Below are positions 3,386-62,353 of a stretch of 64,000 bases of DNA, in pieces (position 1 is the stretch's first letter; every line of letters starts with the position of its first letter). The notes beneath the pieces were generated by a model that saw only the letters and a list, made by a program, of their open reading frames with translations, was not told where the DNA came from and made no database searches. The position numbers and the translations under genes are program-made. The stretch is from the NCBI RefSeq assembly GCF_055900595.2, contig NZ_CM148325.1, one strand, 5' to 3'.

Positions 3386-4714
3386 CTGAGAGATCCCCTC
3401 ATAATTTCCCCAAAACGTAACCATGTGTGAATAGATTTTGAGTAAGCAGGGTTGCAGCCACGAGTGAGTCTTCCCTTGTTATTGTGTAGCCAGAATGCCG
3501 CAAAACTTCCATGCCTAAGCGAACTGTTGAGAGTACGTTTCGATTTCTGACTGTGTTAGCCTGGAAGTGCTTGTCCCAACCTTGTTTCTGAGCATGAACG
3601 CCCGCAAGCCAACATGTTAGTTGAAGCATCAGGGCGATTAGCAGCATGATATCAAAACGCTCTGAGCTGCTCGTTCGGCTATGGCGTAGGCCTAGTCCGT
3701 AGGCAGGACTTTTCAAGTCTCGGAAGGTTTCTTCAATCTGCATTCGCTTCGAATAGATATTAACAAGTTGTTTGGGTGTTCGAATTTCAACAGGTAAGTT
3801 AGTTGCTAGAATCCATGGCTCCTTTGCCGACGCTGAGTAGATTTTAGGTGACGGGTGGTGACAATGAGTCCGTGTCGAGCGCTGATTTTTTCGGCCTTTA
3901 GAGCGAGATTTATACAATAGAATTTGGCATGAGATTGGATTGCTTTTAGTCAGCCTCTTATAGCCTAAAGTCTTTGAGTGACTAGATGACATATCATGTA
4001 AGTTGCTGATAGGTTTCCAGTTTTCCGCTCCTAGGTCTGCATATTGTACTTTTCCTCTTACTCGACTTAACCAGTACCAACCCAGCTTCTCAACGGATTT
4101 ATACCATGGCACTTTAAAGCCAGCATCACTGACAATGAGCGGTGTGGTGTTACTCGGTAGAATGCTCGCAAGGTCGGCTAGAAATTGGTCATGAGCTTTC
4201 TTTGAACATTGCTCTGAAAGCGGGAACGCTTTCTCATAAAGAGTAACAGAACGACCGTGTAGTGCGACTGAAGCTCGCAATACCATAAGCCGTTTTTGCT
4301 CACGGATATCAGACCAGTCAACAAGTACAATGGGCATCGTATTGCCCGAACAGATAAAGCTAGCATGCCAACGGTATACAGCGAGTCGCTCTTTGTGGAG
4401 GTGACGATTACCTAACAATCGGTCGATTCGTTTGATGTTATGTTTTGTTCTCGCTTTGGTTGGCAGGTTACGGCCAAGTTCGGTAAGAGTGAGAGTTTTA
4501 CAGTCAAGTAAGGCGTGGCAAGCCAACGTTAAGCTGTTGAGTCGTTTTAAGTGTAATTCGGGGCAGAATTGGTAAAGAGAGTCGTGTAAAATATCGAGTT
4601 CGCACATTTTGTTGTCTGATTATTGATTTTTGGCGAAACCATTTGATCATATGACAAGATGTGTATCCACCTTAACTTAATGATTTTTACCAAAATCATT
4701 AGGGGATTCATCAG
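3386..4714 (-). mobile_element. Insertion sequence IS10 (IS4 family), complete 1,329-bp element
   Basis: Termini CTGAGAGATCCCCTCATAATTTCCCC (3386->) and CTGATGAATCCCCTAATGATTTTGG (reverse complement at 4714<-) form the IS10 inverted repeats; internal 402-aa transposase; length 1329 bp; flanked by 9-bp direct repeats. Confidence 0.95.
3399..4607 (-). CDS. IS10 transposase
   Basis: 402-aa ORF MCELDILHDSLYQFCPELHLKRLNSLTLACHALLDCKTLTLTELGRNLPTKARTKHNIKRIDRLLGNRHLHKERLAVYRWH... matches the IS10/Tn10 transposase as I recall it. Confidence 0.95.
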   Translation of the reverse strand: MCELDILHDSLYQFCPELHLKRLNSLTLACHALLDCKTLTLTELGRNLPTKARTKHNIKRIDRLLGNRHLHKERLAVYRWHASFICSGNTMPIVLVDWSDIREQKRLMVLRASVALHGRSVTLYEKAFPLSEQCSKKAHDQFLADLASILPSNTTPLIVSDAGFKVPWYKSVEKLGWYWLSRVRGKVQYADLGAENWKPISNLHDMSSSHSKTLGYKRLTKSNPISCQILLYKSRSKGRKNQRSTRTHCHHPSPKIYSASAKEPWILATNLPVEIRTPKQLVNIYSKRMQIEETFRDLKSPAYGLGLRHSRTSSSERFDIMLLIALMLQLTCWLAGVHAQKQGWDKHFQANTVRNRNVLSTVRLGMEVLRHSGYTITREDSLVAATLLTQNLFTHGYVLGKL

Positions 4715-31305: not shown

Positions 31306-32586
31306 TTAATTTTTCATTGCTTCGTTATGGGGCATGGTTGGGGCAAACTCGCTTAACTGTGTATTTAACAAAGCTACCTGTGCATTATTGTTTTCAGACA
31401 TCCATTTTCCGTATACCTGAAATACCATTTGCGCATCTGCATGGCCCATCTGGTTTGCTATAAATGCCGGATTAGCACCAGCTGTCAGCGACCAGCAGGC
31501 ATAAGTATGTCTCGACTGATATGATTTTCGATGGCGGAGTCCGGCACGTTTTATCGCTGCGTCCCACATCTGCCTTATTGAGTCAACGGTAAAATGGTCA
31601 CCATAATTTTTTACTCTCGCTGACACTTCAGGTTGAAAAACAAAGGTGCATTTTTGTTTTTCTGTTCTGCCATACTCTCTGAGGTGAACATCAATGATAT
31701 GCTCTTTGCTCAGTCTCGTTAATGTCATCTGACTCCGGAGAGCGTCGATTGCTGGCTTAATAAGATGAATGACCCGATTGGTTCCCGCCTGTGTTTTTGG
31801 TACCGTGAAACGGTCTTTTGCTAAATTTCTCCTGATCATCATTGTTCCATTTTTCAGATCTATGTCCTCCCATCCAAGTGCACACAGCTCACCAGGGCGA
31901 ACGCCAGTATAAACAGAAACACACCATAAATTTTTTGCTTGCTGATTTCTGCACGCATCGATAAGACGGATAAATTCCTCCCGCGAAAGAGGATCCGGAA
32001 TGGTTCTTGATTCCTTTAATGGCGAGATCCCCTTAAACGGATTATCTGGCAGGTAACCGTTATCAACACCAAACTGGAACACGGCGTTAAGATTTGTCAT
32101 GTAATTATTTACAGTTACAGCCGATCTCCCTGGTTGTGTAACAATATAGTTACTTTTGGGGATCTGGTATCCAGTCAGTAGCTCTTTACGAACCTCCAGT
32201 AATTTTTCTTTATTAATCGATGAGGCAAGATTTTTTTCACCGATTATGCTCAGGATATTTTTGATGACGGCACGGTATGTGTTGAGTGATGTTTTGGCGA
32301 CTTCAGTTTCTTTCAGTGCCAGAAATTTTTCAGCCAGTTCTTTTATGGTTAAATCTTGTCGGGCCTCACCAAATTTTTCCAGATTGCGTGAGGAGGGAAA
32401 CTGTTTTGCATAGTCGAAAACACCAGTTTTTATTGCGTAACAAACAGAGGCGCGTAGTTCACCTGCAACGCGCCTGTTTTTTGCTGTGTCAGGAACCCCC
32501 AGATTTTCCCTGACTCTTACGCCTTTATAAACAAACCAGATACGTAATTTCCCTCCATGGTTTTCCACGCCTGTCGGATATTTCAT
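31306..32586 (-). CDS. Prophage tyrosine integrase (IntQ/IntR-like)
   Basis: ORF MKYPTGVENHGGKLRIWFVYKGVRVRE... with C-terminal catalytic region ...RHTYACWSLTAGANPAFIANQMGHADAQMVFQVYGKW; start at ATG 32584-32586 with RBS GAGAGAGG. Confidence 0.9.
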   Translation of the reverse strand: MKYPTGVENHGGKLRIWFVYKGVRVRENLGVPDTAKNRRVAGELRASVCYAIKTGVFDYAKQFPSSRNLEKFGEARQDLTIKELAEKFLALKETEVAKTSLNTYRAVIKNILSIIGEKNLASSINKEKLLEVRKELLTGYQIPKSNYIVTQPGRSAVTVNNYMTNLNAVFQFGVDNGYLPDNPFKGISPLKESRTIPDPLSREEFIRLIDACRNQQAKNLWCVSVYTGVRPGELCALGWEDIDLKNGTMMIRRNLAKDRFTVPKTQAGTNRVIHLIKPAIDALRSQMTLTRLSKEHIIDVHLREYGRTEKQKCTFVFQPEVSARVKNYGDHFTVDSIRQMWDAAIKRAGLRHRKSYQSRHTYACWSLTAGANPAFIANQMGHADAQMVFQVYGKWMSENNNAQVALLNTQLSEFAPTMPHNEAMKN

Positions 32587-32620
32587 TTCAACCTCTCTCA
32601 TTAGTTAGTGTGGCTTTTAG

Positions 32621-46662: not shown

Positions 46663-47622
46663 ATGATAAAAAAACCTGTGATTGGAATCAGCGGTTGTTT
46701 GGCCGGTTCTGCTGTTCGTTTTGATGGTGGTCACAAAAGAGCTGACTTTTTAATGGACAAATTAGTGGAATGGGTAACATTCAGACCAGTATGTCCGGAA
46801 ATGGCTATAGGGCTGCCAGTTCCGCGTCCTGCTCTACGTCTTGTGCGCTCGAAGCAAGGAAATATACGGATGTGTTTCAGCCACGACCAGAATGAGGATG
46901 TGACAGAGAGAATGACAGAGTTTAGTCGTTCTTATATGCACAAATTAAAGGATGTATCGGGGTTTGTGGTTTGTGCTAAATCTCCCAGCTGTGGCATGGA
47001 GCGCGTGCGTGTCTATGATGAAAATGGTAATCGAGGTCGTAAAGATGGAGTGGGACTATTTACGAGCACTTTGATGGAAAAGTTTTCCTGGCTACCGGTT
47101 GAAGAGGATGGGCGATTACATGATCCAGTGCTTCGTGAGAATTTTGTTGAAAGAGTTTTTGCTTTGCATGAGCTCAATCACCTTTACAAGGAGAAATTAT
47201 CAAGAAGAGAGTTATTAGCTTTTCATAGTCGTTATAAGCTTCAGTTGTTGGCGCATAGTCAGGCAGGCTATAAAGATATGGGACCATTTGTGGCTGCAAT
47301 ACACGAGTGGGCGGACCTTGAATCATACTTTGAGGTGTATCGTGATAAGCTGATGGCGATTCTCAGAAAACCTGCATCACGTAAAAATCACACGAATGTG
47401 CTGATGCATATACAGGGGTATTTTAGTAATTACTTAAGTACACGCCAGCGTAAAGAGTTGACCGAGGTTATACTTAACTATCGCTTTGGCACATTGCCTC
47501 TTCTTGCGCCGTTGACTCTGCTGAAGCATTATCTGGGTGAGTATCCTAATGATTACTTGCTTACACAGAATTACTTCGATCCCTATCCGGAAGAACTGGC
47601 TCTAAGACTGATGGTGAATTAA
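46663..47622 (+). CDS. DUF523 (TudS-like Fe-S) / DUF1722 (YbgA-like) fusion protein, prophage moron
   Basis: 319-aa ORF; N-terminus MIKKPVIGISGCLAGSAVRFDGGHKRADFL... with conserved cysteines; C-terminal half resembles YbgA/DUF1722; RBS AAGGGGGAGG. Confidence 0.7.
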   Translation: MIKKPVIGISGCLAGSAVRFDGGHKRADFLMDKLVEWVTFRPVCPEMAIGLPVPRPALRLVRSKQGNIRMCFSHDQNEDVTERMTEFSRSYMHKLKDVSGFVVCAKSPSCGMERVRVYDENGNRGRKDGVGLFTSTLMEKFSWLPVEEDGRLHDPVLRENFVERVFALHELNHLYKEKLSRRELLAFHSRYKLQLLAHSQAGYKDMGPFVAAIHEWADLESYFEVYRDKLMAILRKPASRKNHTNVLMHIQGYFSNYLSTRQRKELTEVILNYRFGTLPLLAPLTLLKHYLGEYPNDYLLTQNYFDPYPEELALRLMVN

Positions 47623-48028
47623 CTGTATGCGATATCATCTGAAAGTGATGAGTTCCTGTATGCAGGATATTTACAATCGTAAAAACTACACTATGATACC
47701 CATAGTGTCAGTTTGTATAAAAATCCTGTTCACGCTGAAGAAAACATTGAGATGCAATTTAATGTTGGTAAACATACCAGCCCCAAAAGATTTTATTCAA
47801 TCTGTTTTTATATGAAGATATTTCAAGTGAATATTAAGAGTATATAATATTATTATTGCACGCAGCTATTATAATATAACAGATTAGTTTAATGATTTGT
47901 TTTTTGTGAGTTAAACACATGGTTTTATAGTTGTGATGCAATGAGATTTTCCTTATTGTTGAACTGGCGAATATTGATTTTCCACCTATACTTACCTGGT
48001 GTAACCCCAGTGATATCAGGTGGATAAT

Positions 48029-48742
48029 ATGCCATACATATGTTCTGTCATTTTGGTGTTGAACTCGTTTGGTGTCCGAATTGGTAAAGAAGATATTTTG
48101 TTTAAAAAAGGAAGTGCTGTCCTCATCGAATACAATTTAAAAGATCTTTTTTCGTCAAATACAGATCATCTAATGATCGTAGATGTTGAGGAGAAAACAG
48201 TTAATGATTTCTTTAAAAACTACACACTCTCACCTTTTTCTGTAAGAAGGTTTTATCCGTCATACTTGATAGTAGAATGTGAAGATTTTTCATTGTTAAG
48301 GAACTTGGTTGCATGCTTGAATTGTGATAGCAAAACCGTGGATGTAGTTAGAAATCAAATATCACTTGCATGTCTTGCTGTCTTATCTTCAGAGAAAATA
48401 GTGCAAAGTTTTTTGTTCGGAAGTCTTAATAGCTTAGGTTGTAAAGTTAAGGCTATTATTCACTCGGATATCTCAGCGTCATGGAGACTTTGTGATATAT
48501 CTTCAAGATTATATATGAGCGAGAGTTTGTTAAAAAGAAAATTAAAAGACGAAGGATTATCGTTTAGTAAATTAATTCTTGAAGAACGAATGATGATGGC
48601 GCAAAGATTATTGATCTACAGTAACCATACTGTCGGCAAGGTGGCGGGAATATGCGGGTATGACAATGCATCATATTTTGTAAGTGTTTTTAGAGGATAT
48701 TTTGGTGTGCCTCCGCACCAATATTTATCAAGATTTTCTTAG
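48029..48742 (+). CDS. AraC/XylS-family transcriptional regulator (prophage-encoded), in AT-rich block
   Basis: ORF MPYICSVILVLNSFGVRIGKEDILFKKG...; C-terminal AraC HTH (...SESLLKRKLKDEGLSFSKLILEERMMMAQRLLIYSNHTVGKVAGICGYDNASYFVSVFRGYFGVPPHQY); RBS AGGTGG. Confidence 0.8.
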   Translation: MPYICSVILVLNSFGVRIGKEDILFKKGSAVLIEYNLKDLFSSNTDHLMIVDVEEKTVNDFFKNYTLSPFSVRRFYPSYLIVECEDFSLLRNLVACLNCDSKTVDVVRNQISLACLAVLSSEKIVQSFLFGSLNSLGCKVKAIIHSDISASWRLCDISSRLYMSESLLKRKLKDEGLSFSKLILEERMMMAQRLLIYSNHTVGKVAGICGYDNASYFVSVFRGYFGVPPHQYLSRFS

Positions 48743-48932
48743 AAGATATGATGTGATGGCATTTTATAAAGTTATTTTTTGAAGTGTAAGATTATACGAT
48801 ATTTTTAGCTACGCCAGAATAATTGCTGGCGTTTTTCTTTTTGAATAGATGTTCGGGCCTTACGCTAATGTAACTTCTTTCCTTCTTCGAACCAAACCGT
48901 GTACACCATCCGTTATCTGCGGAGGTGAGGCT

Positions 48933-49148
48933 ATGAAATCCATGGATAAGTTAACAACGGGCATCGCCTACAGCACCTCTGCAGGCAGTGCTGGCTACTG
49001 GTTTTTACAGTTGCTCGATAAAGTCACGCCCTCACAGTGGGCGGCAATAGGTGTATTGGGTAGTCTGGTATTTGGCATGCTGACGTATCTGACAAACCTT
49101 TATTTCAAGATTAAAGAAGACAGGCGTAAGGTTGCGAGAAGAGAGTAA
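48933..49148 (+). CDS. Holin (EssD/lambda S-like class)
   Basis: 71-aa [74 protein letters not shown]; RBS GAGGTGAGG. Confidence 0.85.
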
Positions 49149-49152
49149 TCCA

Positions 49153-49704
49153 ATGACTCAAGACTATGAACTGGTTGTGAAAGGAGTTCGCAATTTTGAG
49201 AATAAAGTGGCGGTAACTGTAGCCTTACGGGACAAAAAACACTTTGACGGTGAAATTTTTGACCTGGACATCTCGCTGGACCGTGTTGAAGGTGCCGCGC
49301 TGGAGTTTTATGAGGCAGCAGCCAGAAGGAGCATCAGACAGGTCTTCCTGGATGTTGCTGCCGGGTTATGTGAAGGGGATGAGCAGTCGCCGGAAAAGCG
49401 CCCCATAATTTTAGAGGCGCAGAATGTGTGGATAACCTACAAAGGAAAGCTACCGGGAAGAATTACTGGTTCTCTGAAGACGCCACCGACGGCATTGCGG
49501 TCAGAAAAAGATGATATTGAATCGCCCATTGAAAAACTGGAGGGCAGCGTCGCTGATCTGAATAAAAAATTGTCGGTGCTGATTCCTTCTGAAGATGAAA
49601 AAAAACGCCGCGATGAGCAGTTTGCGGCGTTTTACGATTATTGCATTGAAGTTACTCGCAGGAATTTTGTGAAGATTTTTGAGGAGGGTAAATCTCTTCA
49701 GTAA
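49153..49704 (+). CDS. Hypothetical protein inserted between holin and endolysin
   Basis: 183-aa ORF MTQDYELVVKGVRNFENKVAVTVALRDKKHFDGEIFDLDISLDRVEG...; RBS GAGAG; no recognisable motif. Confidence 0.5.
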   Translation: MTQDYELVVKGVRNFENKVAVTVALRDKKHFDGEIFDLDISLDRVEGAALEFYEAAARRSIRQVFLDVAAGLCEGDEQSPEKRPIILEAQNVWITYKGKLPGRITGSLKTPPTALRSEKDDIESPIEKLEGSVADLNKKLSVLIPSEDEKKRRDEQFAAFYDYCIEVTRRNFVKIFEEGKSLQ

Positions 49705-49912
49705 GCTTATTGGCGGACGCTGCAATTAATTCAGGAAGGTCCGCAAGGTCATCTGTCAGTGGATATGATGAAAAATCGGCGGCAGTTCTGTTAAGAAGCG
49801 CTTTAACTAATTCCTTTTCCTTCTCCGGCAACAAGTTGATTAGAGCTACGACTGCTTGCCTGAGTGCGATTAAATCAGCAAAAGTTTGTTTAGGTAGATT
49901 TGTGTAATCCAT
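49652..49912 (-). CDS. Hypothetical protein, convergent and 3'-overlapping the preceding gene
   Basis: 86-aa ORF MDYTNLPKQTFADLIALRQAVVALINLLPEKEKELVKALLNRTAADFSSYPL...; RBS GAGG 7 nt upstream; 53-nt 3' overlap with the plus-strand ORF. Confidence 0.35.
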   Translation of the reverse strand: MDYTNLPKQTFADLIALRQAVVALINLLPEKEKELVKALLNRTAADFSSYPLTDDLADLPELIAASANKLTEEIYPPQKSSQNSCE

Positions 49913-50025
49913 AGTCGCCTCTGTGTTTATCAGATTGACATCCTCCTCCCGCCAGTGCCCATCACTGGTGAGGTAAGATTTAACATATCCGGGGATTTGA
50001 AGCCGATAAATCCTGATAAATATCC

Positions 50026-51053
<1,028 letters not shown>

Positions 51054-51416
51054 ATTAATATTAAATCGGATTATTTTTAGCGCTGAATGTGAAATTTAAA
51101 TAAAAAGGACTCTTCCATGAGTCAAAATCCTTGAAATCTTAAGGGTAAGATAAAAGGTCATTAGACAGAATGACACGTTTTATTAATAAATAAAGCTATT
51201 GTTTCATTCGTGTGTTTTTCTTTACAAAAGTAATCCTTGCTATGGTTGGTTAATCATGCGTTAATGGTGTTCTGGTTTGTTACAAAATTATCTGAAGCAG
51301 TCATTGTTATAATTTTATTATTTGTACCTCTTGAGATTTCCTTGTTGGTTTTTCTCTCTGATATTTTTTTTCGGACCATTCTGCCCAAGGGCTAACTTCT
51401 TCAAAAGGTAATAATG

Positions 51417-51629
51417 ATGTCTAACAAAATGACTGGTTTAGTGAAATGGTTTAACCCTGAAAAAGGTTTTGGTTTCATCACGCCGAAAGATGGTAGCAAA
51501 GATGTGTTTGTCCATTTCTCAGCTATTCAGAGCAACGATTTCAAAACGTTAACTGAGAATCAGGAAGTCGAATTTGGTATTGAGAACGGACCTAAAGGCC
51601 CCGCGGCTGTTCATGTTGTGGCACTTTGA
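51417..51629 (+). CDS. cspI: Cold-shock protein (CspA family; CspI-like)
   Basis: 70-aa [73 protein letters not shown]; preceded by ~360-bp untranslated AT-rich leader. Confidence 0.85.
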
Positions 51630-51828
51630 GGTAGATAATATTACAAACCATATTCACTTTAGATGCCCGTGTTGCCATGGTTCTCAGTATAGAACATCAT
51701 CTTTTGATGTTTCTGACAGGAATCCTTTCGGGGCAAAATGTATCTTTTGTAAATCAATGATGATTACATTTGATAATATTTCACAATACTTAAATGTTAG
51801 CCGTCTATCGTTAGATTTAAGAAAGTGA
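51613..51828 (+). CDS. Candidate small zinc-ribbon-like protein (CPCC...CxxC)
   Basis: [51 protein letters not shown]...; overlaps csp 3' end; weak RBS; followed by terminator. Confidence 0.25.
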
Positions 51829-51833
51829 AAATG

Positions 51834-51858
51834 AAGGCTCCTTCGGGAGCTTTTTTTC
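51834..51858 (+). terminator. Rho-independent terminator
   Basis: GCTCC-ttcg-GGAGC stem followed by TTTTTTT. Confidence 0.65.
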
Positions 51859-51900
51859 TTAGTGTCTAGTCGATGGATACTCACATAATACGGTAACATT

Positions 51901-52131
51901 ATGAAAAAAATAATAGTTTTTTTTAACTCTGAACCAGCAATGGTAGTGCCAGTGATGACCGGAGTTAACACCATCATGCGTGAATATCCAAATGGCGAAA
52001 CAACACACCTCACTGTAATGGCTGCAGGGTTTCCATCTCTGACCGGAGATCATAAAATCATTTATGTAGCAGCGGATCGACATGTAACTTCAGAAGAAAT
52101 TCTGGAAGCAGCAATGAGACTCTTGAATTGA
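51901..52131 (+). CDS. Small prophage protein (YdfK/YnaE-like, tentative)
   Basis: 76-aa ORF MKKIIVFFNSEPAMVVPVMTGVNTIMREYPNGETTHLTVMAAGFPSLTGDHKIIYVAADRHVTSEEILEAAMRLLN; family assignment from memory. Confidence 0.45.
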   Translation: MKKIIVFFNSEPAMVVPVMTGVNTIMREYPNGETTHLTVMAAGFPSLTGDHKIIYVAADRHVTSEEILEAAMRLLN

Positions 52132-52303
52132 TTTGATTCTAATGCATTGATAATAAATGATAATCATCTTTATCTGTTTGTGTGAAATTTAGACCGTCGT
52201 ATGTTGATTATTGCGATGTTTCATCTTATCTTTTATACGTTTGCTCCATATAATTGACACTACTGTGTACCAGGAAAGTCATAACAGACTAAAAGAGGAA
52301 ATG

Positions 52304-52477
52304 ATGAACATTGAAGAGTTAAAAACAAAAACAGAAGCAGATATTTCTGAATATATAACAAAAAAAATCATTGAGCTTAAGAAAAAGACCGGGAAAGAAG
52401 TTACCAGTATCCAGTTTACTGCACGGGAAAAAATGACTGGTCTTGAAAGCTATGATATCAAGATTGATTTAATCTAG
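52304..52477 (+). CDS. gnsB: GnsA/GnsB-family protein
   Basis: 57-aa ORF MNIEELKTKTEADISEYITKKIIELKKKTGKEVTSIQFTAREKMTGLESYDIKIDLI; RBS AGAGGA. Confidence 0.8.
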   Translation: MNIEELKTKTEADISEYITKKIIELKKKTGKEVTSIQFTAREKMTGLESYDIKIDLI

Positions 52478-52770
52478 TCTGTTTAGTATTAGCATCAATT
52501 TCTCATCAGATGCTATTCAACAATACAAATTACCCATAAACCTCGTTTTTACGGGGTTTTGTTATATTTAAACATTACCGAATAGGTATAAATCTCGATT
52601 GTCGATGGTATTGGTTGTGTGACAATACCTAGTCTTTCCGGTATGCCTGATGAGAATACAAACGACAGATTATGTAAGGGAAACGCGCTGAATCTTTAAC
52701 TCTTTCATGCTGAGTGATTTGACGTTATATTTTTAGCCGTAAGTGAAGAGCAAACGCATGGAGCGACAAA

Positions 52771-52977
52771 ATGCATAAAGATCAATACACTGATGCCCCC
52801 TCCCAGGAGCAGGTTCGTGTAAAAACTATGCTTAATAGCACCATTTCGATGGGTTACCCGGATGTTGTAATTGCATGTATAGAACATCAAGTGTCTCTGG
52901 AAGCATTCAGGGCAATTGAGGCCGCGTTAGTAAAGCACGATAAGAATACGAAGGATTATTCCCTGGTGGTTGACTGA
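52771..52977 (+). CDS. Hypothetical small protein
   Basis: 68-aa [71 protein letters not shown]; no motif recognised. Confidence 0.3.
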
Positions 52978-53539
52978 TCACCATAACTGCTAACCATTCT
53001 GACCATTTCACAAGTGACAGAGTCAATATCGTATTCTGTCACTGTCAGGCTAATACAGCAATGCAATTCAACTACAGCAATGCCTCGTATTTAGGTGAAT
53101 TTACAATATCGTCCAGTTCGGATGCCGGCTGCATTTCTGAAGATAAGGCATTTCGGTTCTCGTATTTTCCCCTCATGCTCGTCAGTCCTGCGCGTAGTAA
53201 GAAACAGGACACTCACACTAATTTGTGTGGGCATGCTGTGATGTCCTTCTGAATTATCCCCATGCCATTATGTAAAGCTCTGTTACAGATGCTCGTCACG
53301 GTTGTCAGGCTGTCGGGTCCTCCCAGTGGGGGGCCCTGCCACGGGGCGGGAGCGTCGCGGAAAAAGGCTAGTTTTTGCATTTCCATGGCGGCGGCAGCAT
53401 GTTTGGTAATTTATTGATAATTAAAAGTTATTTCCCTTTTCACCTGTACAATATTTTTTTCTTCCTGTCATTAGACCAGTTTGCAATTAATTGAAATATA
53501 TAAATAAACCTGATTTTCACCTGCCAGATGGAGTTGCTT

Positions 53540-54067
53540 ATGTCAAATGTGAGCGGGATCGGTGATGCTTATTACTGGAGTGTTTTTAAAATCGCCGAGG
53601 CCTTTGGGCTTCACCGGGACACAGTAAAAAAACGGCTCCTCGCGGCCAACACTCCTGTGGCTGCGACTGTCAGGGGGAACCCCGTTTACGCCCTGCAGCA
53701 TGTCGGGCCCGCCCTGTTTAGTGTGAAGCATGAGGCAGCAGACTCTGTTCATGATCCATCCCGTATGGAGCCGAAAGAGAGAAAGGACTGGTACCAGTCT
53801 GAAAATGAAAGGATCAAGCTGGAAAAGGAGCAGCGAAAACTCATCCCAGTTGATGAAGTAGTCATCGTCTATTCGTCCATGAGAAAGGCTGTCGTCCAGG
53901 TTCTGGAGACAATTCCGGATGTTCTTGAACGCGATTGCGCTCTGACTCCTCAGGCCGTCGGCGTTGTACAGCAGGCCATTGATGACCTGCGATACACTCT
54001 TCAGGAAAAATCCTACGAGGCTTGTGCTGCTGAATTAATTCCTGATGAGGAAGGAGAGAGTCTCTAG
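53540..54067 (+). CDS. Terminase small subunit (putative)
   Basis: ORF MSNVSGIGDAYYWSVFKIAEAFGLHRDTVKKRLLAANTPVAATVRGNPVYALQHV... with N-terminal HTH-like segment; directly upstream of large terminase; RBS GGAG. Confidence 0.65.
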   Translation: MSNVSGIGDAYYWSVFKIAEAFGLHRDTVKKRLLAANTPVAATVRGNPVYALQHVGPALFSVKHEAADSVHDPSRMEPKERKDWYQSENERIKLEKEQRKLIPVDEVVIVYSSMRKAVVQVLETIPDVLERDCALTPQAVGVVQQAIDDLRYTLQEKSYEACAAELIPDEEGESL

Positions 54068-54075
54068 GAGGAATA

Positions 54076-56175
54076 ATGGGTTTTTCATCAGCCCGAAATT
54101 TGGGAAGGGACATATCGGCAGGATTTTCCCCACCACGTCGCATGCCGATTTCGGAGGCTGTTAAAAAATTCATGCGTGTTCCCAAGGGGGCTGGTAACTC
54201 GGTGCCATGGGATCCTGAACTGACACCCTACATCATTGAGCCCATGAACTGCCTGGCATCGCGTGAATACGATGCGGTGATTTTTGTTGGTCCTGCGCGA
54301 ACAGGGAAGACCATTGGTCTGATCGATGGATGGATTGTCTATACCATCGTTTGCGATCCTTCGGACATGCTCGTTGTGCAGATGACCGAAGATAAGGCCC
54401 GCGAGCATTCTAAAAAGCGCCTCGACAGAACGTTCAGAAGCAGTGCGGCGGTAAAGAAAAGAATGAGTCCACGTCGTAACGACAATAATGTCCATGATAA
54501 GACGTTCAGGGATGGCTCGTTCCTTAAAATTGGTTGGCCCTCGGTCAACATTATGTCGTCGTCGGATTACCGGTTTGTCGCCTTAACCGATTACGACCGT
54601 TTTCCGGAGAATATCGACAGCGAGGGTGATGGTTTCTCCCTGGCCTCAAAACGTACCACCACATTTATGTCCGCCGGGATGACTCTGGTGGAGAGCTCGC
54701 CGGGACGTGACATCTGCGACAGCAAATGGCGACGTAAGTCGCCTCATGAAGCGCCACCGACGACTGGTATTCTTTCCCTTTACAATCGTGGTGACCGCCG
54801 CCGCTGGTACTGGCCATGTCCGCACTGCGGTGAATATTTTCAGCCAGCTATGGATGCCATGACCGGCTACCGTAATGAACCGGATCCCTTTAAAGCCAGT
54901 GAGGCGGCGTATCTACTTTGCCCGCACTGCAGCGGCATTATCACTGCGGAGAAAAAGCGTGAGCTCAATAGTGCAGGAGTCTGGTTGCGTGAAGGTCAGG
55001 TCATTGATCGTAACGGCAACGTTTCCGGTGAACCGCGCCGCTCCCGTATCGCCAGTTTCTGGATGGAAGGGCCAGCTGCTGCGTATCAGACCTGGGCGCA
55101 ACTGGTTTACAAATTACTGACTGCAGAACAGGAGTATGAAGCGACAGGAAGCGAAGAAACACTCAGGGCGGTTATCAACACCGACTGGGGATTGCCTTAT
55201 CTTCCTCGTGCCAGCATGGAGCAACGAAAAAGTGAACTGCTTGAGCAGCGGGCAGAGCCAGTTCCTTCCTGCAGTGTGCCGGATGGCGTTAATTTCCTTG
55301 TGGCGACAGTGGATGTGCAGGCGGGACGTCATCGCCGTTTTGTGGTTCAGGTAACTGGCTATGGCAGTCGTGGCGAACGCTGGATTATTGATCGTTACAA
55401 TATCACGCAGTCATTGCGCAGTGACTGCGACGGGGAGAGCCAGCGAATTGATCCGGCCAGCTATCCGGAAGACTGGGATGTCCTGCTGACGGATGTTTTT
55501 CATAAAAGCTGGCCGCTGGCCTCCGATCCTTCTCAACAAATGCGACTGATGGCAATGGCGGTGGACTCCGGCGGTGAAGACGGGGTCACTGATAATGCCT
55601 ATAAATTCTGGCGTCGTTGCCGTCGTGATGGCCTTGGTAAACGTATTTACCTGTTTAAGGGCGACAGCATCCGGCGCGCAAAACTGATCACCCGTACATT
55701 CCCTGATAACACCGGACGAACGGGCCGACGGGCGCAGGCCGCAGGTGATGTGCCGCTCTGGCTTCTTCAGACGGATGCACTGAAAGACCGGGTGAATAAC
55801 GCGTTATGGCGTGACTCGCCAGGTCCCGGCTATGTGCATTTCCCTGACTGGCTGGGGAGCTGGTTTTACGACGAACTGACGTATGAAGAGCGGAGCAGTG
55901 ACGGGAAATGGAGTAAGCCGGGTCGCGGTGCCAACGAAGCTTTTGACCTGATGGTGTATGCCGAGGCTCTGGTCATTCTGCATGGATACGAAAAGATCCG
56001 CTGGCCGGATGCACCGGAGTGGGCGAGCCGGGAAACCTGGCTGGAGTGTGTCCCGGACAGTACCGAACCGTCACCCTCACCGGAACCGGTATCCACGCCT
56101 GTTAAAAAACAAAAACGGAAGAAAACAGTAACTGACGATGTTAACCCCTGGCTGACTTCCGGAGGATGGTTATGA
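54076..56175 (+). CDS. Terminase large subunit (lambda gpA-like)
   Basis: 699-aa ORF with Walker A (VGPARTGKT) and C-terminal nuclease region; RBS AGGAGG. Confidence 0.9.
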   Translation: MGFSSARNLGRDISAGFSPPRRMPISEAVKKFMRVPKGAGNSVPWDPELTPYIIEPMNCLASREYDAVIFVGPARTGKTIGLIDGWIVYTIVCDPSDMLVVQMTEDKAREHSKKRLDRTFRSSAAVKKRMSPRRNDNNVHDKTFRDGSFLKIGWPSVNIMSSSDYRFVALTDYDRFPENIDSEGDGFSLASKRTTTFMSAGMTLVESSPGRDICDSKWRRKSPHEAPPTTGILSLYNRGDRRRWYWPCPHCGEYFQPAMDAMTGYRNEPDPFKASEAAYLLCPHCSGIITAEKKRELNSAGVWLREGQVIDRNGNVSGEPRRSRIASFWMEGPAAAYQTWAQLVYKLLTAEQEYEATGSEETLRAVINTDWGLPYLPRASMEQRKSELLEQRAEPVPSCSVPDGVNFLVATVDVQAGRHRRFVVQVTGYGSRGERWIIDRYNITQSLRSDCDGESQRIDPASYPEDWDVLLTDVFHKSWPLASDPSQQMRLMAMAVDSGGEDGVTDNAYKFWRRCRRDGLGKRIYLFKGDSIRRAKLITRTFPDNTGRTGRRAQAAGDVPLWLLQTDALKDRVNNALWRDSPGPGYVHFPDWLGSWFYDELTYEERSSDGKWSKPGRGANEAFDLMVYAEALVILHGYEKIRWPDAPEWASRETWLECVPDSTEPSPSPEPVSTPVKKQKRKKTVTDDVNPWLTSGGWL

Positions 56176-56384
56176 ACCAGAATGATATCGAAGCCATGAT
56201 TCAGCGTTATACGGAAGCTGAAATGGCGGTGCTGGACGGAAAATCCGTCACCTTTAATGGTCAGCAGATGACCATGGAAAACTTATCTGAGATCCGGCAG
56301 GGACGGCAGGAGTGGGAGCGCCGCCTTGCGGCTCTGATTACACGACGACGGGGGCATCCCGGGTACCGGCTGGCGAGGTTCTGA
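56172..56384 (+). CDS. Head-tail joining protein (lambda gpW-like)
   Basis: 70-aa ORF MNQNDIEAMIQRYTEAEMAVLDGKSVTFNGQQMTMENLSEIRQGRQEWERRLAALITRRRG...; start overlaps terminase stop (ATGA). Confidence 0.6.
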   Translation: MNQNDIEAMIQRYTEAEMAVLDGKSVTFNGQQMTMENLSEIRQGRQEWERRLAALITRRRGHPGYRLARF

Positions 56385-57892
56385 TGGCAATTCTTGATGA
56401 TGTGATTGGCGTTTTTTCACCAGGATGGAAAGCGGCAAGGCTGCGTTCCCGGGCGGTGATCCAGGCTTATGAGGCCGTAAAAACGACGCGGACACACAAA
56501 GCCCGGCGGGAAAACCGAACTGCCGACCAGTTAAGCCTCTACGGGGCCGTGTCGTTACGTGAGCAGGCCCGTTACCTTGATAACAACCACGATCTGGTCA
56601 TTGGTGTATTTGACAAGCTGGAAGAACGGGTGGTGGGGAAAAACGGGATTATTGTCGAGCCACATCCGGTATTACGCAATGGGGCCATTGCCCGTGATCT
56701 GGCAGCGGAGATACGCACCCGATGGAGTGAATGGTCTGTCAGTCCGGAAGTTACCGGGCAGTTTACCCGTCCGATGCTGGAACGTCTGATGCTGCGTACC
56801 TGGCTGCGCGATGGTGAGGTGTTTGCCCAGATGGTTTCCGGGCGCATAAACAGCCTGACGCCTTCTGCCGGTGTTCATTTCTGGCTGGAGGCACTCGAGC
56901 CAGACTTTATTCCCATGACCAGTGATGAGAGCAACAGGCTGAATCAGGGCGTGTTTGTTGATGACTGGGGGCGTCCCGAAAAATATCTGGTGTATAAAAG
57001 TCGTCCTGTATCCGGACGGCAGATGGAAACCAAAGAAGTGGATGCAGAGCGAATGCTGCATCTTAAATTTGTTCGCCGTCTGCACCAGATGCGCGGGACG
57101 TCTTTATTGTCCGGTGTGCTGATCCGCCTCAGTGCCCTGAAAGAATATGAAGATTCTGAGCTGACTGCAGCAAGGATCGCTGCTGCTCTGGGGATGTACA
57201 TCCGCAAAGGCGACGGACAGAGCTATGAAACGGATGGTAATGACAGCAAGGAGAATGAACGCGAGCTTACCATTCAGCCAGGCATTATTTACGACGATCT
57301 GAAACCCGGCGAAGAAATCGGAATGGTGAAGTCGGATCGCCCCAATCCTAACCTTGAAACTTTTCGTAATGGTCAGTTGCGTGCCGTGGCGGCGGGCAGT
57401 CGTCTGAGTTTTTCCAGTACAGCGCGCAACTATAACGGCACTTACAGCGCCCAGCGTCAGGAGCTGGTTGAATCCACTGATGGCTACCTGATCCTGCAGG
57501 ACTGGTTTATTGGTGCCGTCACCCGCCCGATGTATCGTGCCTGGCTGAAACAGGCTGTGGCATCCGGTGTTATCAGGCTACCCCGCGATCTTGACCGTTC
57601 TTCACTGTATACCGCGGTGTATTCCGGACCGGTGATGCCGTGGATTGACCCTGTTAAGGAGGCTGAGGCCTGGAAAATTCAGATTCGTGGTGGAGCGGCG
57701 ACAGAATCAGACTGGGTACGTGCAGGTGGTCGTAATCCGGATGATGTCAAACGTCGGCGCAAGGCAGAAATTGATGAAAACCGCAAGCTGGATCTGGTAT
57801 TTGATACCGATCCGGCCAGTGATAAAGGAGGCAGCAGTGCCGCAACGAAACGACAGGAGCCGCAGCACACCGACGACCAGTCCGAAGAATAA
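56384..57892 (+). CDS. Portal protein (lambda gpB-like)
   Basis: 502-aa ORF MAILDDVIGVFSPGWKAARLRSRAVIQAYEAVKT...; start overlaps gpW-like stop. Confidence 0.85.
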   Translation: MAILDDVIGVFSPGWKAARLRSRAVIQAYEAVKTTRTHKARRENRTADQLSLYGAVSLREQARYLDNNHDLVIGVFDKLEERVVGKNGIIVEPHPVLRNGAIARDLAAEIRTRWSEWSVSPEVTGQFTRPMLERLMLRTWLRDGEVFAQMVSGRINSLTPSAGVHFWLEALEPDFIPMTSDESNRLNQGVFVDDWGRPEKYLVYKSRPVSGRQMETKEVDAERMLHLKFVRRLHQMRGTSLLSGVLIRLSALKEYEDSELTAARIAAALGMYIRKGDGQSYETDGNDSKENERELTIQPGIIYDDLKPGEEIGMVKSDRPNPNLETFRNGQLRAVAAGSRLSFSSTARNYNGTYSAQRQELVESTDGYLILQDWFIGAVTRPMYRAWLKQAVASGVIRLPRDLDRSSLYTAVYSGPVMPWIDPVKEAEAWKIQIRGGAATESDWVRAGGRNPDDVKRRRKAEIDENRKLDLVFDTDPASDKGGSSAATKRQEPQHTDDQSEE

Positions 57893-57905
57893 TTCCTGGT
57901 TCAGG

Positions 57906-59864
57906 ATGCAGGCTGGTCACCAGAGTGACGCGGATATTTATATTTATGACGAGATTGGTTTCTGGGGTGTTACAGCGAAGCAGTTTATCAGTGATCTGAA
58001 TGCACTGGGCGATATCACCCACATTAATCTCCATATCAATTCACCGGGTGGCGATGTCTTTGAAGGCATCGCCATTTTTAATGCGCTGAAAACACATGGT
58101 GCGTCCATTACCGTTTATGTCGACGGTGTGGCGGCGTCAATGGCGTCGGTCATTGCGATGGTGGGAAACCCGGTCATTATGCCGGAAAACACCTTCATGA
58201 TGATTCATAAACCATTTGGCTTTACGGGCGGTGATGCGGAGGACATGCGCACCTATGCCGACCTGCTCGATAAGGTTGAGGCGGTTCTGTTACCCGCTTA
58301 TGCACAGAAAACCGGGAAAACCACCGATGAAATTGCTGCCATGCTGGCGGATGAGACCTGGATGTCCGGTGCCGAATGTCTGGCACATGGATTTGCTGAT
58401 CAGGTGACGCCAGCCGTTAAGGCAATGGCATGTATTCAGTCAAAACGTACAGAGGAATTTAAAAAGATGCCGGAATCCATTCGAAACATGATTACTCCGC
58501 CACGCAACAGTGCTCCACGCGTACAGGATGATGAACCTGCAGCCTCCCGGACGCCAGTGCAGGCAGCAGCACCCGTGGTGGATGAAAACAGTATCCGTGC
58601 GCAGGTACTGGCAGAGCAAAAAGCGCGTGTAAACGGTATTAATGATCTGTTTGCCATGTTTGGCGGGCGTTATCAGACGCTGCAGGCTCAGTGTCTTGCC
58701 GATCCTGAGTGTTCGCTGGAGCAGGCCCGCGAAAAGCTGTTGAACGAGATGGGGCGCGAGTCCACGCCATCCAATAAAAATACACCGGCTCATATTTATG
58801 CTGGTAACGGTAATTTTGTGGGGGACGGGATCCGCCAGGCGCTGATGGCGCGTGCCGGATTTGAAAAAACCGAACGTGATAATGTCTACAACGGGATGAC
58901 CCTGCGTGAATATGCCCGTATGTCACTGACTGAACGGGGTATTGGGGTTTCCGGTTATAACCCGATGCAGATGGTCGGTGCGGCGTTCACCCACAGTACG
59001 TCTGACTTCGGTAATATTCTGCTGGATGTTGCGAACAAAGCCATTCTGCAGGGCTGGGAAGATGCTCCTGAAACCTATGAACAATGGACGCGGAAAGGTC
59101 AGTTGTCTGATTTTAAAATTGCCCATCGTGTGGGTATGGGGGGCTTCAGTGCTCTGCGTCAGGTGCGTGAAGGGGCGGAATATAAATACGTCACCACCGG
59201 AGATAAACAGGCCACTATTGCACTGGCGACCTATGGCGAGCTGTTCAGTATCACCCGTCAGGCCATTATCAATGATGATCTGAATATGCTGACCGATGTC
59301 CCGATGAAACTGGGCCGTGCGGCGAAATCCACTATTGCCGATCTGGTTTATGCCATTCTGACGTCTAACCCGAAAATCTCCACAGATAATGTAAGTCTGT
59401 TCGATAAAGCGAAACATGCAAACGTACTGGAGAGCGCTGCAATGGACGTGGCATCGCTGGATAAAGCCCGCCAGTTGATGCGCGTTCAGAAAGAGGGGGA
59501 GCGTCATCTGAATATTCGTCCTGCGTTCGTACTGGTACCGACGGCGATGGAGTCTGTTGCTAACCAGGTCATTCGCTCCTCAAGTGTCAAGGGGGCTGAC
59601 ATTAACGCCGGTATTATTAACCCGGTGAAAGATTTTGCGACCGTTATTGCAGAGCCTCGTCTTGATGATAACAGCCAGACCACCTTCTACCTGGCTGCGT
59701 CAAAAGGCTCCGATACGATTGAAGTGGCTTATCTCAACGGTGTGGATACGCCATATATTGATCAGATGGAGGGCTTCAGTGTGGATGGCGTGACAACGAA
59801 AGTGCGTATTGACGCCGGTGTCGCGCCAGTTGATCACCGCGGTCTGGTGAAATGTACGGCGTAA
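57906..59864 (+). CDS. Fused prohead protease (ClpP/S49-like) - scaffold - major capsid protein
   Basis: 652-aa ORF; N-terminal ClpP-like segment (...IYIYDEIGFWG...INSPGGDVFEGIAIFNALKTH...MMIHKPF...) and C-terminal capsid-like domain. Confidence 0.8.
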   Translation: MQAGHQSDADIYIYDEIGFWGVTAKQFISDLNALGDITHINLHINSPGGDVFEGIAIFNALKTHGASITVYVDGVAASMASVIAMVGNPVIMPENTFMMIHKPFGFTGGDAEDMRTYADLLDKVEAVLLPAYAQKTGKTTDEIAAMLADETWMSGAECLAHGFADQVTPAVKAMACIQSKRTEEFKKMPESIRNMITPPRNSAPRVQDDEPAASRTPVQAAAPVVDENSIRAQVLAEQKARVNGINDLFAMFGGRYQTLQAQCLADPECSLEQAREKLLNEMGRESTPSNKNTPAHIYAGNGNFVGDGIRQALMARAGFEKTERDNVYNGMTLREYARMSLTERGIGVSGYNPMQMVGAAFTHSTSDFGNILLDVANKAILQGWEDAPETYEQWTRKGQLSDFKIAHRVGMGGFSALRQVREGAEYKYVTTGDKQATIALATYGELFSITRQAIINDDLNMLTDVPMKLGRAAKSTIADLVYAILTSNPKISTDNVSLFDKAKHANVLESAAMDVASLDKARQLMRVQKEGERHLNIRPAFVLVPTAMESVANQVIRSSSVKGADINAGIINPVKDFATVIAEPRLDDNSQTTFYLAASKGSDTIEVAYLNGVDTPYIDQMEGFSVDGVTTKVRIDAGVAPVDHRGLVKCTA

Positions 59865-59885
59865 ACGTCGCAGACAACAACTCTG

Positions 59886-59908
59886 ATGGCCCGTAAGGGC
59901 TTTTTTTG
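59886..59908 (+). terminator. Hairpin plus T-run after capsid gene (partial terminator candidate)
   Basis: GGCCC-gtaa-GGGC followed by TTTTTTT. Confidence 0.5.
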
Positions 59909-59950
59909 TACCTGAAATCAGCCCCTGAACGGGGCTGTGCGGAGACAGTT

Positions 59951-60274
59951 ATGGCAAAGAATTTTGTAGAAGAAGGAAAAACGGTGGCGATTGTTGCCAG
60001 TGCAGCCATCAGCAGCGGAGAGCTGGTGCAGGTGGGTGATGTTTTTGCGGTGGCGCTGACCGATATTCCACAGGGTGAAACAGGCGACGGCATGACCGAA
60101 GGTGTGTTTATGCTGCCTAAGCTGAAAACGGATGACATGAAAACGGGTAAGAAGGTTTATCTGAAGTCCGGAAAAGTTCAGCTGACTAACAGCGGCTCTG
60201 ATCCGCTGGTCGGGGTTGTCTGGGCAGATGCCGGAACCAGTGCAGAAGAAGTGCCGGTAAAACTCAATGTCTGA
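59951..60274 (+). CDS. Small head protein (head completion/decoration candidate)
   Basis: 108-aa ORF MAKNFVEEGKTVAIVASAAISSGELVQVGDVFAVALTDIPQGETGDGMTEG...; RBS GGAGA; position after capsid gene. Confidence 0.5.
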   Translation: MAKNFVEEGKTVAIVASAAISSGELVQVGDVFAVALTDIPQGETGDGMTEGVFMLPKLKTDDMKTGKKVYLKSGKVQLTNSGSDPLVGVVWADAGTSAEEVPVKLNV

Positions 60275-60542
60275 TCCCTTTTCCCGGCTGGCAGCGCGTA
60301 TGGATGCGATCACGGTCAGAAAGATGGGAAAGACAGCCTCGATTAATGATGTCGATATGACTGTGATCCCGGGAGAAACACTGGCAGAGCTGAATGCTCT
60401 GTCCGGACCTGCGGTCTCTCTGGTGGTGTTTTCTTCGGGATACCGCCCACGGCGCGGGGATCGCGTTGTTTATGACGGACAACAATGGACGGTCACACGG
60501 CATGAACGCTTTAACGGTAAGCCAATGATCTTTATTGAGTAA
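60267..60542 (+). CDS. Head-tail connector protein (lambda gpFII-like)
   Basis: 91-aa ORF MSDPFSRLAARMDAITVRKMGKTASINDVDMTVIPGETLAELN...RRGDRVVYDGQQWTV... Confidence 0.55.
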   Translation: MSDPFSRLAARMDAITVRKMGKTASINDVDMTVIPGETLAELNALSGPAVSLVVFSSGYRPRRGDRVVYDGQQWTVTRHERFNGKPMIFIE

Positions 60543-60553
60543 AGAGGTGTGGG

Positions 60554-61144
60554 ATGAAGGGGCTTGAGAATGCCATCCGCAATCTGAACAGCCTTGATAC
60601 CCGTATGGTGCCACAGGCCAGCGCATGGGCGATAAACCGTGTGGCACAGAAAGCGGTCTCGGTTGCCACCCGGCAGGTTGCCGGGAATACCGTTGCGGGA
60701 GATAACCAGGTGAAAGGGATCCCCCTGAAACTGGTACGTCAGCGTGTCCGGGTGTTTAAAGCCAGTCCGTCAGGAAAAATGACGGCCAGGATCCGCGTTA
60801 ACCGGGGCAATCTGCCCGCCATCAAACTGAACACAACACGGCGGCGTGCTGGTGAAGGACTGAGAGTGGGAAAATACTTTTTCCGGGGGGCATTTGTTCA
60901 GCAACTGGCGAATGGCCGCTGGCATGTTCTGAGGCGTCTTCCTGAAGCGCGTTTTGCAACAGGGCATGACCATCAGGGCAGGCCAAGAAAAAATCGTCTT
61001 CCTGTGGAGGTAGTGAAAATCCCGCTGTCCGGACCGCTGACACAGGCATTTGAAGATGCCCGCGACCACATCATTGCTGCGGAAATGCCGAAACAGCTGG
61101 GGTATGCACTGAAACAACAACTGAGGTTATGGCTGACCCGATGA
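60554..61144 (+). CDS. Tail completion protein (lambda gpZ-like)
   Basis: 196-aa ORF MKGLENAIRNLNSLDTRMVPQASAWAINRVAQKAVSVATRQVAGN... Confidence 0.65.
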   Translation: MKGLENAIRNLNSLDTRMVPQASAWAINRVAQKAVSVATRQVAGNTVAGDNQVKGIPLKLVRQRVRVFKASPSGKMTARIRVNRGNLPAIKLNTTRRRAGEGLRVGKYFFRGAFVQQLANGRWHVLRRLPEARFATGHDHQGRPRKNRLPVEVVKIPLSGPLTQAFEDARDHIIAAEMPKQLGYALKQQLRLWLTR

Positions 61145-61542: not shown

Positions 61543-61552
61543 GGAGGTGGTA

Positions 61553-62296: not shown

Positions 62297-62315
62297 CAGG
62301 ACGATACTCATCATT

Positions 62316-62341
62316 TGCCCCGGTTATGCGGGGCTTTTTTG
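62316..62341 (+). terminator. Rho-independent terminator after major tail gene
   Basis: GCCCCG-gttatg-CGGGGC stem followed by TTTTTT. Confidence 0.6.
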
Positions 62342-62353
62342 CAGGTGGAGAAC

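Follow-up and report, generated by a model that had tools for sequence, protein, structure and literature searches.

What is the function of the GC-rich block that lies just upstream of the terminase genes in a lambdoid prophage of Escherichia coli? We analyzed this question in a continuous DNA stretch of 64 kb (the window). Its first part is E. coli chromosome (tus, rstAB, pntAB ... rspAB), after which comes a lambdoid prophage at the Qin locus. This prophage sits between rspB and ydfJ, extends beyond the end of the window and contains the Qin-type genes dicB, DicF, hokD, cspI, gnsB and pinQ. Its portal protein belongs to the lambda family according to a Pfam domain search. The E. coli genome NZ_CP042899 is colinear with the window (99.7% identity) only over 47386-64000, and its coordinates were not used to the left of this part. 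Rfam matches elsewhere in the window are the cspA thermoregulator, DicF, sok and RNA-OUT; a tRNA scan of the whole window found none. The coordinates of all relevant features are listed in Table 1.

The initial annotation described the block as strongly GC-rich in an otherwise AT-rich region, about 200 bp upstream of the small terminase gene at the place where the lambda cos site lies relative to Nu1, and proposed it as a candidate packaging site. The GC-richness was borne out, and the quoted letters lie where they had been placed. The G+C content is 0.66 over 53300-53399, as opposed to 0.25-0.30 to the right (53400-53549) and about 0.44 upstream. The stretch 53311-53360 reaches 0.80; this is the maximum among all 50-bp stretches of the 64 kb, of which only 0.01% attain this value. 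The description of the surroundings as AT-rich applies mainly to the right of the block (G+C 0.285 for 53403-53539); the gap as a whole (52978-53539) has 0.44. The block extends from about 230 bp to about 140 bp upstream of the small terminase gene. Its predicted nick, which is described below, lies 185-197 bp before the gene start; the range reflects a start at 53528, as in the annotation of phage cdtI, or at the conserved position 53540. In lambda Nu1 starts at bp 191. The placement is in this sense like that in lambda, but the small terminase itself is a member of the DUF1441 family and not of the Nu1 family.

Next we compared the block with phage lambda, whose right and left ends were joined and then set beside the window. 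The layout in the window is GGGTCCT-N22-CCACG/GGGCGGGAGCGT/CGCGG (next base A; slashes indicate nicks, predicted in the case of the window), while that of lambda is GGGTCCT-N23-TTACG/GGGCGGCGACCT/CGCGG (next base G). The spacer, counted from the heptamer to the predicted nick, is 22 bp here, 23 bp in lambda and 22-24 bp among relatives. A direct comparison of cosN with lambda ACGGGGCGGCGACCTCGCGGG gave 16 matches in 21 bases. The lambda-derived pattern ACGGGGCGG-N5-TCGCGG has a single occurrence in the window, at 53341-53360, with 0.01 expected. The dyad symmetry of cosN includes 6 of 11 base pairs, compared with 5 of 11 in lambda. The overhang differs from that of lambda only at positions 7, 8, 9 and 11; the left half and both nick flanks (ACG/GGGCGG...T/CGCGG) are identical. 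The resemblance to the lambda cohesive end is hence stronger than originally claimed, with 8 of 12 overhang bases matching and the GGGTCCT heptamer upstream of them.

The heptamer by itself is not rare (2 in the window against 4.1 expected), so that its weight rests on its position and its conservation. It is kept in 18 of the 22 related cos regions that were tabulated, while AAGGTACTCC takes its place in the loci L064 and L075-L078 and in Gifsy-2. A highly conserved 7-bp cosQ is known from lambda-like phages, in which changes at bp 7-12 of the overhang are common (Feiss et al., PMC4669245).

Together, these data suggest that the sequence from 53315 to about 53527 very probably serves the Qin-locus prophage as a lambda-type cos site. 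This reading is supported by the lambda alignment, by the ends of two phage genome records, by the families of the downstream genes and by the layout in relatives. The span of 53280-53420 that had been proposed includes all of cosQ and cosN, but of cosB only the left part; the complete site extends further to the right. The nick positions and the length and polarity of the overhang in Table 1 are those predicted from the alignment.

Table 1. Features of the putative cos site and of its surroundings. Slashes indicate predicted nicks; bp numbers are counted from the predicted left end of the mature chromosome.
Feature	Position	Strand	Evidence or remark
Integrase-sized ORF	31306..32601	-	Same position as annotated integrase of comparator genome
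Lysozyme	50026..50559		Late region
Rz-like	50556..51053		Late region
Small Qin-type accessory genes cspI, ymcF, ynfN, gnsB	Between Rz-like gene and 562-bp gap		
Gap without annotated gene (562 bp)	52978-53539		Holds the GC-rich block
cosQ-type heptamer GGGTCCT	53315..53321	+	Identical to lambda heptamer, same relative place
cosN, 22-bp nicking site CCACG/GGGCGGGAGCGT/CGCGG	53339..53360	.	Match to lambda cosN
Predicted 12-nt 5' cohesive end GGGCGGGAGCGT, left end of mature chromosome	53344..53355	+	Ends of cdtI and Tritos records
Conserved block AAAAAGGCTAGTTTTTGCATTTCC adjoining cosN, lambda I2 position	53361..53383	+	Common to phages of another small-terminase group
GC-rich element CATGGCGGCGGCAGCATG, R3 position of cosB, bp 41-58	53384..53401	+	Conservation
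IHF consensus TATCAATAAATTA (fits WATCAANNNNTTR), I1-like putative bend site, bp 64-76	53407..53419	-	Perfect consensus match
TTTTCACCTG, candidate small-terminase binding repeat, R2 position, bp 94-103	53437..53446	+	Repeat count
Conserved block TGTCATTAGACCAGTTTG inside cosB	53466..53483	+	TGTCA invariant in 11 of 11 aligned loci
TTTTCACCTG, second candidate binding repeat, R1 position, bp 171-180	53514..53523	+	Directly before ribosome-binding site
Small terminase, 175 aa, Pfam DUF1441, ATG at bp 197	53540..54067	+	E 1.7e-44; GGAG at 53530-53533
Large terminase, 699 aa, lambda gpA family, expected cosN nicking enzyme	54076..56175	+	Pfam GpA_ATPase 5e-81, GpA_nuclease 2.3e-86
Small head-tail joining protein, portal, ClpP-protease/major-capsid fusion	In that order after large terminase		

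A sensitive search with 53300-53400 found the cos core in 35 phage records. These include HannyBb, mEp460 variants, PhiR40_1/47_1/55_1, phi458, mEp213, mEp043 and relatives of LLS, as well as VT1-Sakai, several Stx2 phages, CP-1639 and a Klebsiella phage. Across these relatives the flanks CACG/ and /CGCGG-AAAA(A/C)GGC are fixed, while positions 7-12 of the overhang vary; this is the pattern that Feiss et al. (PMC4669245) give for lambda-like cos sites. A scan of viral contigs for the small terminase resulted in 71 loci, among them groups with 89-96%, 55-57% and 42% identity. The layout of cosQ, cosN, IHF site and repeats persists even where the identity of the small terminase has dropped to 42-57%. 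An alignment of 11 upstream regions with a small-terminase identity of 55-100% showed as conserved features the cosQ/cosN frame, an IHF-like TAA....TGA core, TCACCTG-type motifs at two positions and the TGTCA block.

The predicted nick can be compared with the ends of deposited genomes. In a megablast search of a phage collection with 53000-54100, base 1 of cdtI (AB285204/NC_009514) and of Tritos (OV696610, a linear record) aligns with query base 345 and hence with window position 53344. The last bases of both records (...CCACG) correspond to 53343, and circularising the records restores the window sequence across the junction. The junction in both records coincides with the nick that was set by the lambda alignment, between 53343 and 53344. 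These are the ends as deposited, which were either measured or set by analogy with lambda. Between cosQ and the small-terminase ATG, Tritos matches the window in 225 of 228 bases and cdtI in 219 of 228; cosQ, cosN, the IHF core and both repeats are free of changes, and the small terminase is 100% identical. The DNA immediately to the left of cosQ is unrelated in cdtI and has one extra 8-bp unit in Tritos. The prophage of the window is located at the Qin site, in contrast to cdtI and Tritos.

The paper on Tritos (PMC9928086) and a paper on infant-gut coliphages are silent on genome ends, and a literature search for the exact string GGGCGGGAGCGT returned unrelated eukaryotic papers only, with no match in a phage context. 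Among the IMG/VR contigs in the match table that encode the small terminase and are cut close to the gene, none begins at the distance expected from cos; these contigs hence give no independent evidence of physical ends. The record of mEp460_4F5 begins 5 bp to the left of the predicted nick and is devoid of 3 bases inside cosN. This start might stem from misassembly at genuine ends and is too weak to use.

The identity of the site is separate from the question of whether it is active. The sequence could be a cos site by descent that is no longer used, in a defective prophage like that of K-12 Qin at the same locus; such a relic could at most be used by a superinfecting phage with the same packaging specificity. 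The prophage indeed sits at the Qin locus among Qin-type genes, and the closest annotated genome has pseudogenes in it, namely a partial ydfR, a frameshifted ybgA-like gene and a partial tail-fibre assembly gene. Against this stands the presence of integrase, excisionase, Q, holin, lysozyme, Rz, both terminase subunits, portal, protease-capsid fusion and a full set of tail genes. Furthermore all cos elements are identical to those of Tritos, a prophage of LF82 that forms plaques on an hsdR- derivative of MG1655 and has siphovirus particles (PMC9928086). The fact that Tritos forms plaques with the same cos elements indicates that this combination of cos and terminase works in a live phage. We consider it unlikely that the site is a relic; this alternative concerns its activity and not its identity.

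The block could also be protein coding. Two ORFs run across it, 53262..53417 (+, 51 aa) and 53213..53386 (-, 57 aa), and hypothetical-protein genes are annotated at the equivalent place in HannyBb, mEp460_ev081, 569R4 and PhiR40_1. However, PGAP annotates nothing in 52978-53539 of an identical E. coli sequence, and no gene is annotated there in cdtI or Tritos. The 8-bp length difference just left of cosQ in Tritos breaks the frame, as do the unrelated left flank of cdtI and the 1-bp changes of the cosQ-cosN spacer among relatives; the conservation tracks motifs and not codons. A coding function is in the light of these data very improbable. Slightly less probable still is a role as transcription signal or structured RNA, for example a terminator hairpin, a late-operon attenuator, a small RNA or a REP-like element. 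The block is GC-rich, lies inside the late transcript and could form a short hairpin between GGGTCCTCC and GGGGGGCCC. But a scan of 52900-53700 found no promoter or terminator, folding of 53295-53385 is no better than that of shuffled sequence (z = -0.07), and Rfam gave no match over the block, either in 51000-54200 at E up to 1 or in the whole window at gathering scores. Equally remote is headful (pac-type) packaging with a coincidental likeness to lambda cos, which has no finding in its favor and is contradicted by a large terminase of the gpA family and a portal of the lambda family, given that a passage of PMC12315714, citing Casjens, reports a correlation between large-terminase type and end type, and also by the independent cdtI and Tritos records, which are cut exactly at the predicted nick, a unique site.

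Having favored a cos site, we analyzed the sequence to the right of cosN for the elements of a cosB. The 23-bp block AAAAAGGCTAGTTTTTGCATTTCC, which adjoins cosN and may correspond in function to its lambda position, I2, is also present in mEp460, phi458, 569R4 and PhiR40_1, phages that have a small terminase and a cosB of another group. This indicates that the block travels with cosN and the large terminase and not with small-terminase specificity. The next element, CATGGCGGCGGCAGCATG, is kept in loci with a small terminase of at least 90% identity and altered to CATGCTGTCAGCAGCAGG in the 55% group. In close relatives it holds CAGGTC, which is almost the CACCTG repeat in inverted form. The element is a candidate binding site of the small terminase.

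It is followed by the putative IHF site. Only 6 matches to the IHF consensus occur in the 64 kb, and the core TAA....TGA of this one is invariant in the 11 aligned loci, down to a small-terminase identity of 55%. In lambda the I1 site is located between R3 and R2 (PMC4669245), and the predicted binding of IHF at 53407-53419 would likewise fall between repeat positions.

An automated repeat search of 53280-53560 returned no direct-repeat families; the two TTTTCACCTG 10-mers were found by direct search. This 10-mer occurs 3 times in the window, where 0.22 are expected, and two of the copies are in cosB, 77 bp apart. In the column of the first copy, TCACCTG is kept in the 90-96% group, while the 55% group has the related and possibly inverted GAGGTGACA. 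In the column of the second copy, TTCACCTG(C/A)CAG is kept in all 11 aligned loci, the 55% group included. The spacing of these elements is similar to that in lambda, where, counted from the sequence, R3 is at about bp 53-66, R2 at about 105-120 and R1 at about 155-167. Lambda-type R sequences (CGTTTCC...) were not found in 53356-53539. The two clear copies of TTTTCACCTG are in direct orientation and the element at the R3 position is at best a degenerate inverted copy, whereas R2 and R1 of lambda are mutually inverted; the assignment of R sites in Table 1 is for this reason tentative. Judging from their sequence and conservation, these repeats are candidates for the sites that the small terminase would bind.

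We then asked which kind of protein the small terminase is. The ATG at 53540 is the start that is conserved across loci and also the choice of PGAP, while the ATG at 53528 in the cdtI record is not conserved. The protein has a Pfam match to DUF1441 only and none to Phage_Nu1, and a BLASTP comparison with Nu1 was not significant (E 4.6). A profile from 10 sequences aligned residues 13-57 with residues 3-48 of Nu1, albeit weakly (hhalign E 1e-3, probability 22%). Homologs with 35-42% identity are annotated as small terminase in Gifsy-2, Fels-1, mEp213, mEp460 and LLS; the homolog at the small-terminase position of VT1-Sakai is annotated as hypothetical protein only. A search by sequence against solved structures gave no significant match, the best being a MarR regulator with E 0.05.

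The AlphaFold2 model of the protein has a mean pLDDT of 76.7. Residues 8-60 are modelled as strand-helix-helix-strand-strand-helix with a pLDDT of 80-87, and long helices follow. The best matches among PDB structures are winged helix-turn-helix proteins of the MerR type (RacA, BldC, NmlR, CadR) and 7lwr, the title of which refers to viral DNA-packaging motors. The target TM is about 0.6 and the rmsd 2.2-2.7 A over about 50 residues, with all E-values at 0.06 or worse; Nu1 is absent among the 50 structure matches listed. The DNA-binding domain of Nu1 is a MerR-like winged helix-turn-helix. The model is consistent with the view that the N-terminal domain of the small terminase is the same kind of DNA reader as Nu1. 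In the alignment this N-terminal domain differs most between cosB groups, while the C-terminal half is shared mosaically. This is what is expected for a DNA-specificity domain that is joined to a domain for binding the large terminase. A BLASTP alignment of the large terminase with lambda gpA spans about 630 residues at 24% identity (E 7e-22).

On the model of lambda, the site could work as follows. During late lytic growth, dimers of the DUF1441 small terminase would bind the CACCTG-type repeats in cosB (53384-53527), aided by an IHF-induced bend at 53407-53419. The bound small terminase would place the gpA-family large terminase on cosN, where its nick in the top strand would fall between 53343 and 53344 and that in the bottom strand 12 bp further right. 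The predicted product is a chromosome with the 5' overhang GGGCGGGAGCGT at its left end. From there the DNA would be pumped rightwards into the prohead, with the terminase genes first. At the next cos on the concatemer, cosQ (53315-53321) together with cosN would trigger the terminating cut.

In many respects the site resembles that of lambda. Both have the same heptamer, the same left half and flanks of cosN, a distance of ~190 bp to the small terminase, an IHF site (putative in the window) between repeat positions, a large terminase of the gpA family and a portal of the lambda family; packaging towards the terminase genes would also be common to both. In addition to the spacer and the overhang, the differences concern the small terminase (DUF1441 instead of Phage_Nu1), the repeats in cosB (CACCTG-type with the two clear copies direct, instead of CGTTTCC-type and inverted) and the head module, which in the window is Gifsy-like and has its capsid protein joined to a ClpP protease. 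The fact that the small terminase is of the DUF1441 and not of the Nu1 family places the prophage in the Gifsy/mEp213/cdtI branch of lambda-like cos phages and sets it apart from the packaging specificity of lambda itself.

Phages of the mEp213/LLS/Gifsy type share the cosQ-cosN frame with the window, and their small terminases are of the same family with 35-42% identity; their N-terminal DNA-binding domain is divergent. The LLS record has a 12-nt 5'-extended cohesive site GGGCGGCGCGCT annotated at the aligned position, and the same 12-nt 5' overhang was inferred for mEp213 (PMC12315714, citing Feiss). In this group of phages, positions 7-11 of the overhang differ from the window and TCATCATCATCA-type runs replace the CACCTG repeats in cosB. 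Gifsy-1 has been listed among the lambda-like cos phages with the cosB order R3-I1-R2-R1 (Feiss and co-workers). Gifsy-2 differs from the window not only in its heptamer but also in having 14 nt between the conserved flanks.

The comparison with mEp460, phi458 and PhiR40_1 is different. Here cosQ, cosN, the overhang and the block adjoining cosN are identical to the window, but cosB and the DNA-binding domain of the small terminase belong to a different group; the likeness of phages with an mEp460-type small terminase ends at about 53383, about 40 bp to the right of the nick. This split parallels that between lambda and phage 21, which share cosN and differ in cosB specificity. The divergence at about 53383, together with that of cdtI to the left of cosQ, indicates that cosQ, cosN and the 23-bp block travel together, while cosB travels with the DNA-binding domain of the small terminase. 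The fact that the latter two change together suggests that cos acts as a mosaic junction. In this way the cos site likely helps to determine which E. coli prophages cross-package. The element is very common: of 5426 complete E. coli genomes, 2201 match some part of a 1.1-kb query, and 623 match at least 80% of it.

The site is of the cdtI/Tritos type, a known and ordinary feature that is already in public records, and its meaning beyond annotation is small. A cos between 53343 and 53344 gives the correct linear map of the virion DNA of this prophage, which can be assigned to those lambda-like cos phages whose small terminase is of the DUF1441 family; the hypothetical proteins called over the block in several phage records are probably spurious. 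It is mildly useful to know that cosQ, cosN and the 28 bp that follow are common to phages whose small terminases fall into different groups. A more far-reaching view, which we advance only tentatively and consider rather doubtful, is that DUF1441 small terminases read an uncharacterised type of cosB, in which CACCTG-type repeats (two clear copies being direct) surround a conserved IHF site, and that this repeat-IHF-repeat module is duplicated in some relatives. If this were true, there would be one or more classes of packaging specificity distinct from those of lambda, 21 and N15. Since ~40% of complete E. coli genomes match some part of the locus, mapping such specificities could then help to predict which prophages and satellites can package each other's DNA.

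In three Shiga-toxin phages, L010 (VT1-Sakai, about 1501-1565), L012 (CP-1639) and L015 (Stx2_14040), cosQ and both cosN flanks are kept and the spacer from cosQ to the nick is 24 nt. The flanks themselves are separated by 11 nt in VT1-Sakai and by 10 nt in the other two phages, compared with 12 nt in the window and in lambda. This short stretch means that either the overhang is altered or the right flank is displaced. In Gifsy-2 (L089, about 480-560) the conserved flanks CCACG and CGCGG enclose 14 nt, GGTGGCTTCGGGCT, and the position of cosQ is occupied by AAGGTACTCC instead of GGGTCCT. Loci L064 and L075-L081 share this replacement of GGGTCCT with Gifsy-2.

The left edge of cos is also variable. 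An 8-bp unit resembling GCTGTCAG abuts cosQ on its left side (window 53301-53314); it occurs in two copies in the window versus three in the phage Tritos, a minor polymorphism in copy number at the border of cos. The linear record of mEp460_4F5 (L007 1-20, LR595868) begins 5 bp to the left of the predicted nick, and its cosN is three bases short (GGGCGGGAGCGCGG versus GGGCGGGAGCGTCGCGG in other phages). Both the start of this record and the gap in its cosN may be an assembly artefact at the physical ends of the DNA.

In L075 and L085, two distant relatives with small terminases only 57% and 42% identical to that of the window, the cosB module (repeat, IHF-like site, repeat) is apparently doubled in tandem within the 260 bp that precede the small terminase gene. 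A search of the 260 bp upstream of this gene in L068, whose small terminase is 89% identical, detected neither cosQ nor cosN; upstream of 1501 only the proximal ~80 bp of cosB are kept. This locus possibly belongs to a prophage that has undergone rearrangement or decay.

The head genes of the window prophage resemble those of Gifsy-2-type heads, which likewise have a fusion of protease and major capsid protein. PGAP names ORF 57645..59864 a protease/major capsid fusion and places its start at 57837.

Features located in the prophage and in the chromosomal part of the window
Feature	Coordinates	Strand	Remarks
RNA-OUT match	4600-4669		97 bits; within IS10 segment
402-aa ORF	3399..4607	minus	within IS10 segment
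DicF small RNA	36061-36112	-	prophage early region
sok antitoxin RNA	41712-41886	+	prophage early region; hokD adjoins in comparator annotation
cspA thermoregulator 5' leader match	51259-51675		full-length; 113 bits
cspI-like cold-shock gene	51414..51629		the cspA thermoregulator leader runs into this gene
ClpP-like prohead protease + major capsid	57645..59864		one ORF; Pfam CLP_protease and Phage_capsid_4

The chromosomal part of the window contains an IS10 insertion (3385-4714). Comparison with the E. coli genome NZ_CP042899 showed that this 1.33-kb segment is missing there and that the insertion point, in the coordinates of that genome, lies within ydgH. The two flanks overlap by 8 bp in NZ_CP042899, which is consistent with a target-site duplication by IS10.

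On the map of the prophage, the cspA-type leader and the cspI-like gene follow the lysis genes and precede cos. The Tritos homologue of cspI is reported to be an accessory gene that is strongly expressed in the lysogen (PMC9928086). The presence of DicF and sok is typical of the content of the Qin locus.
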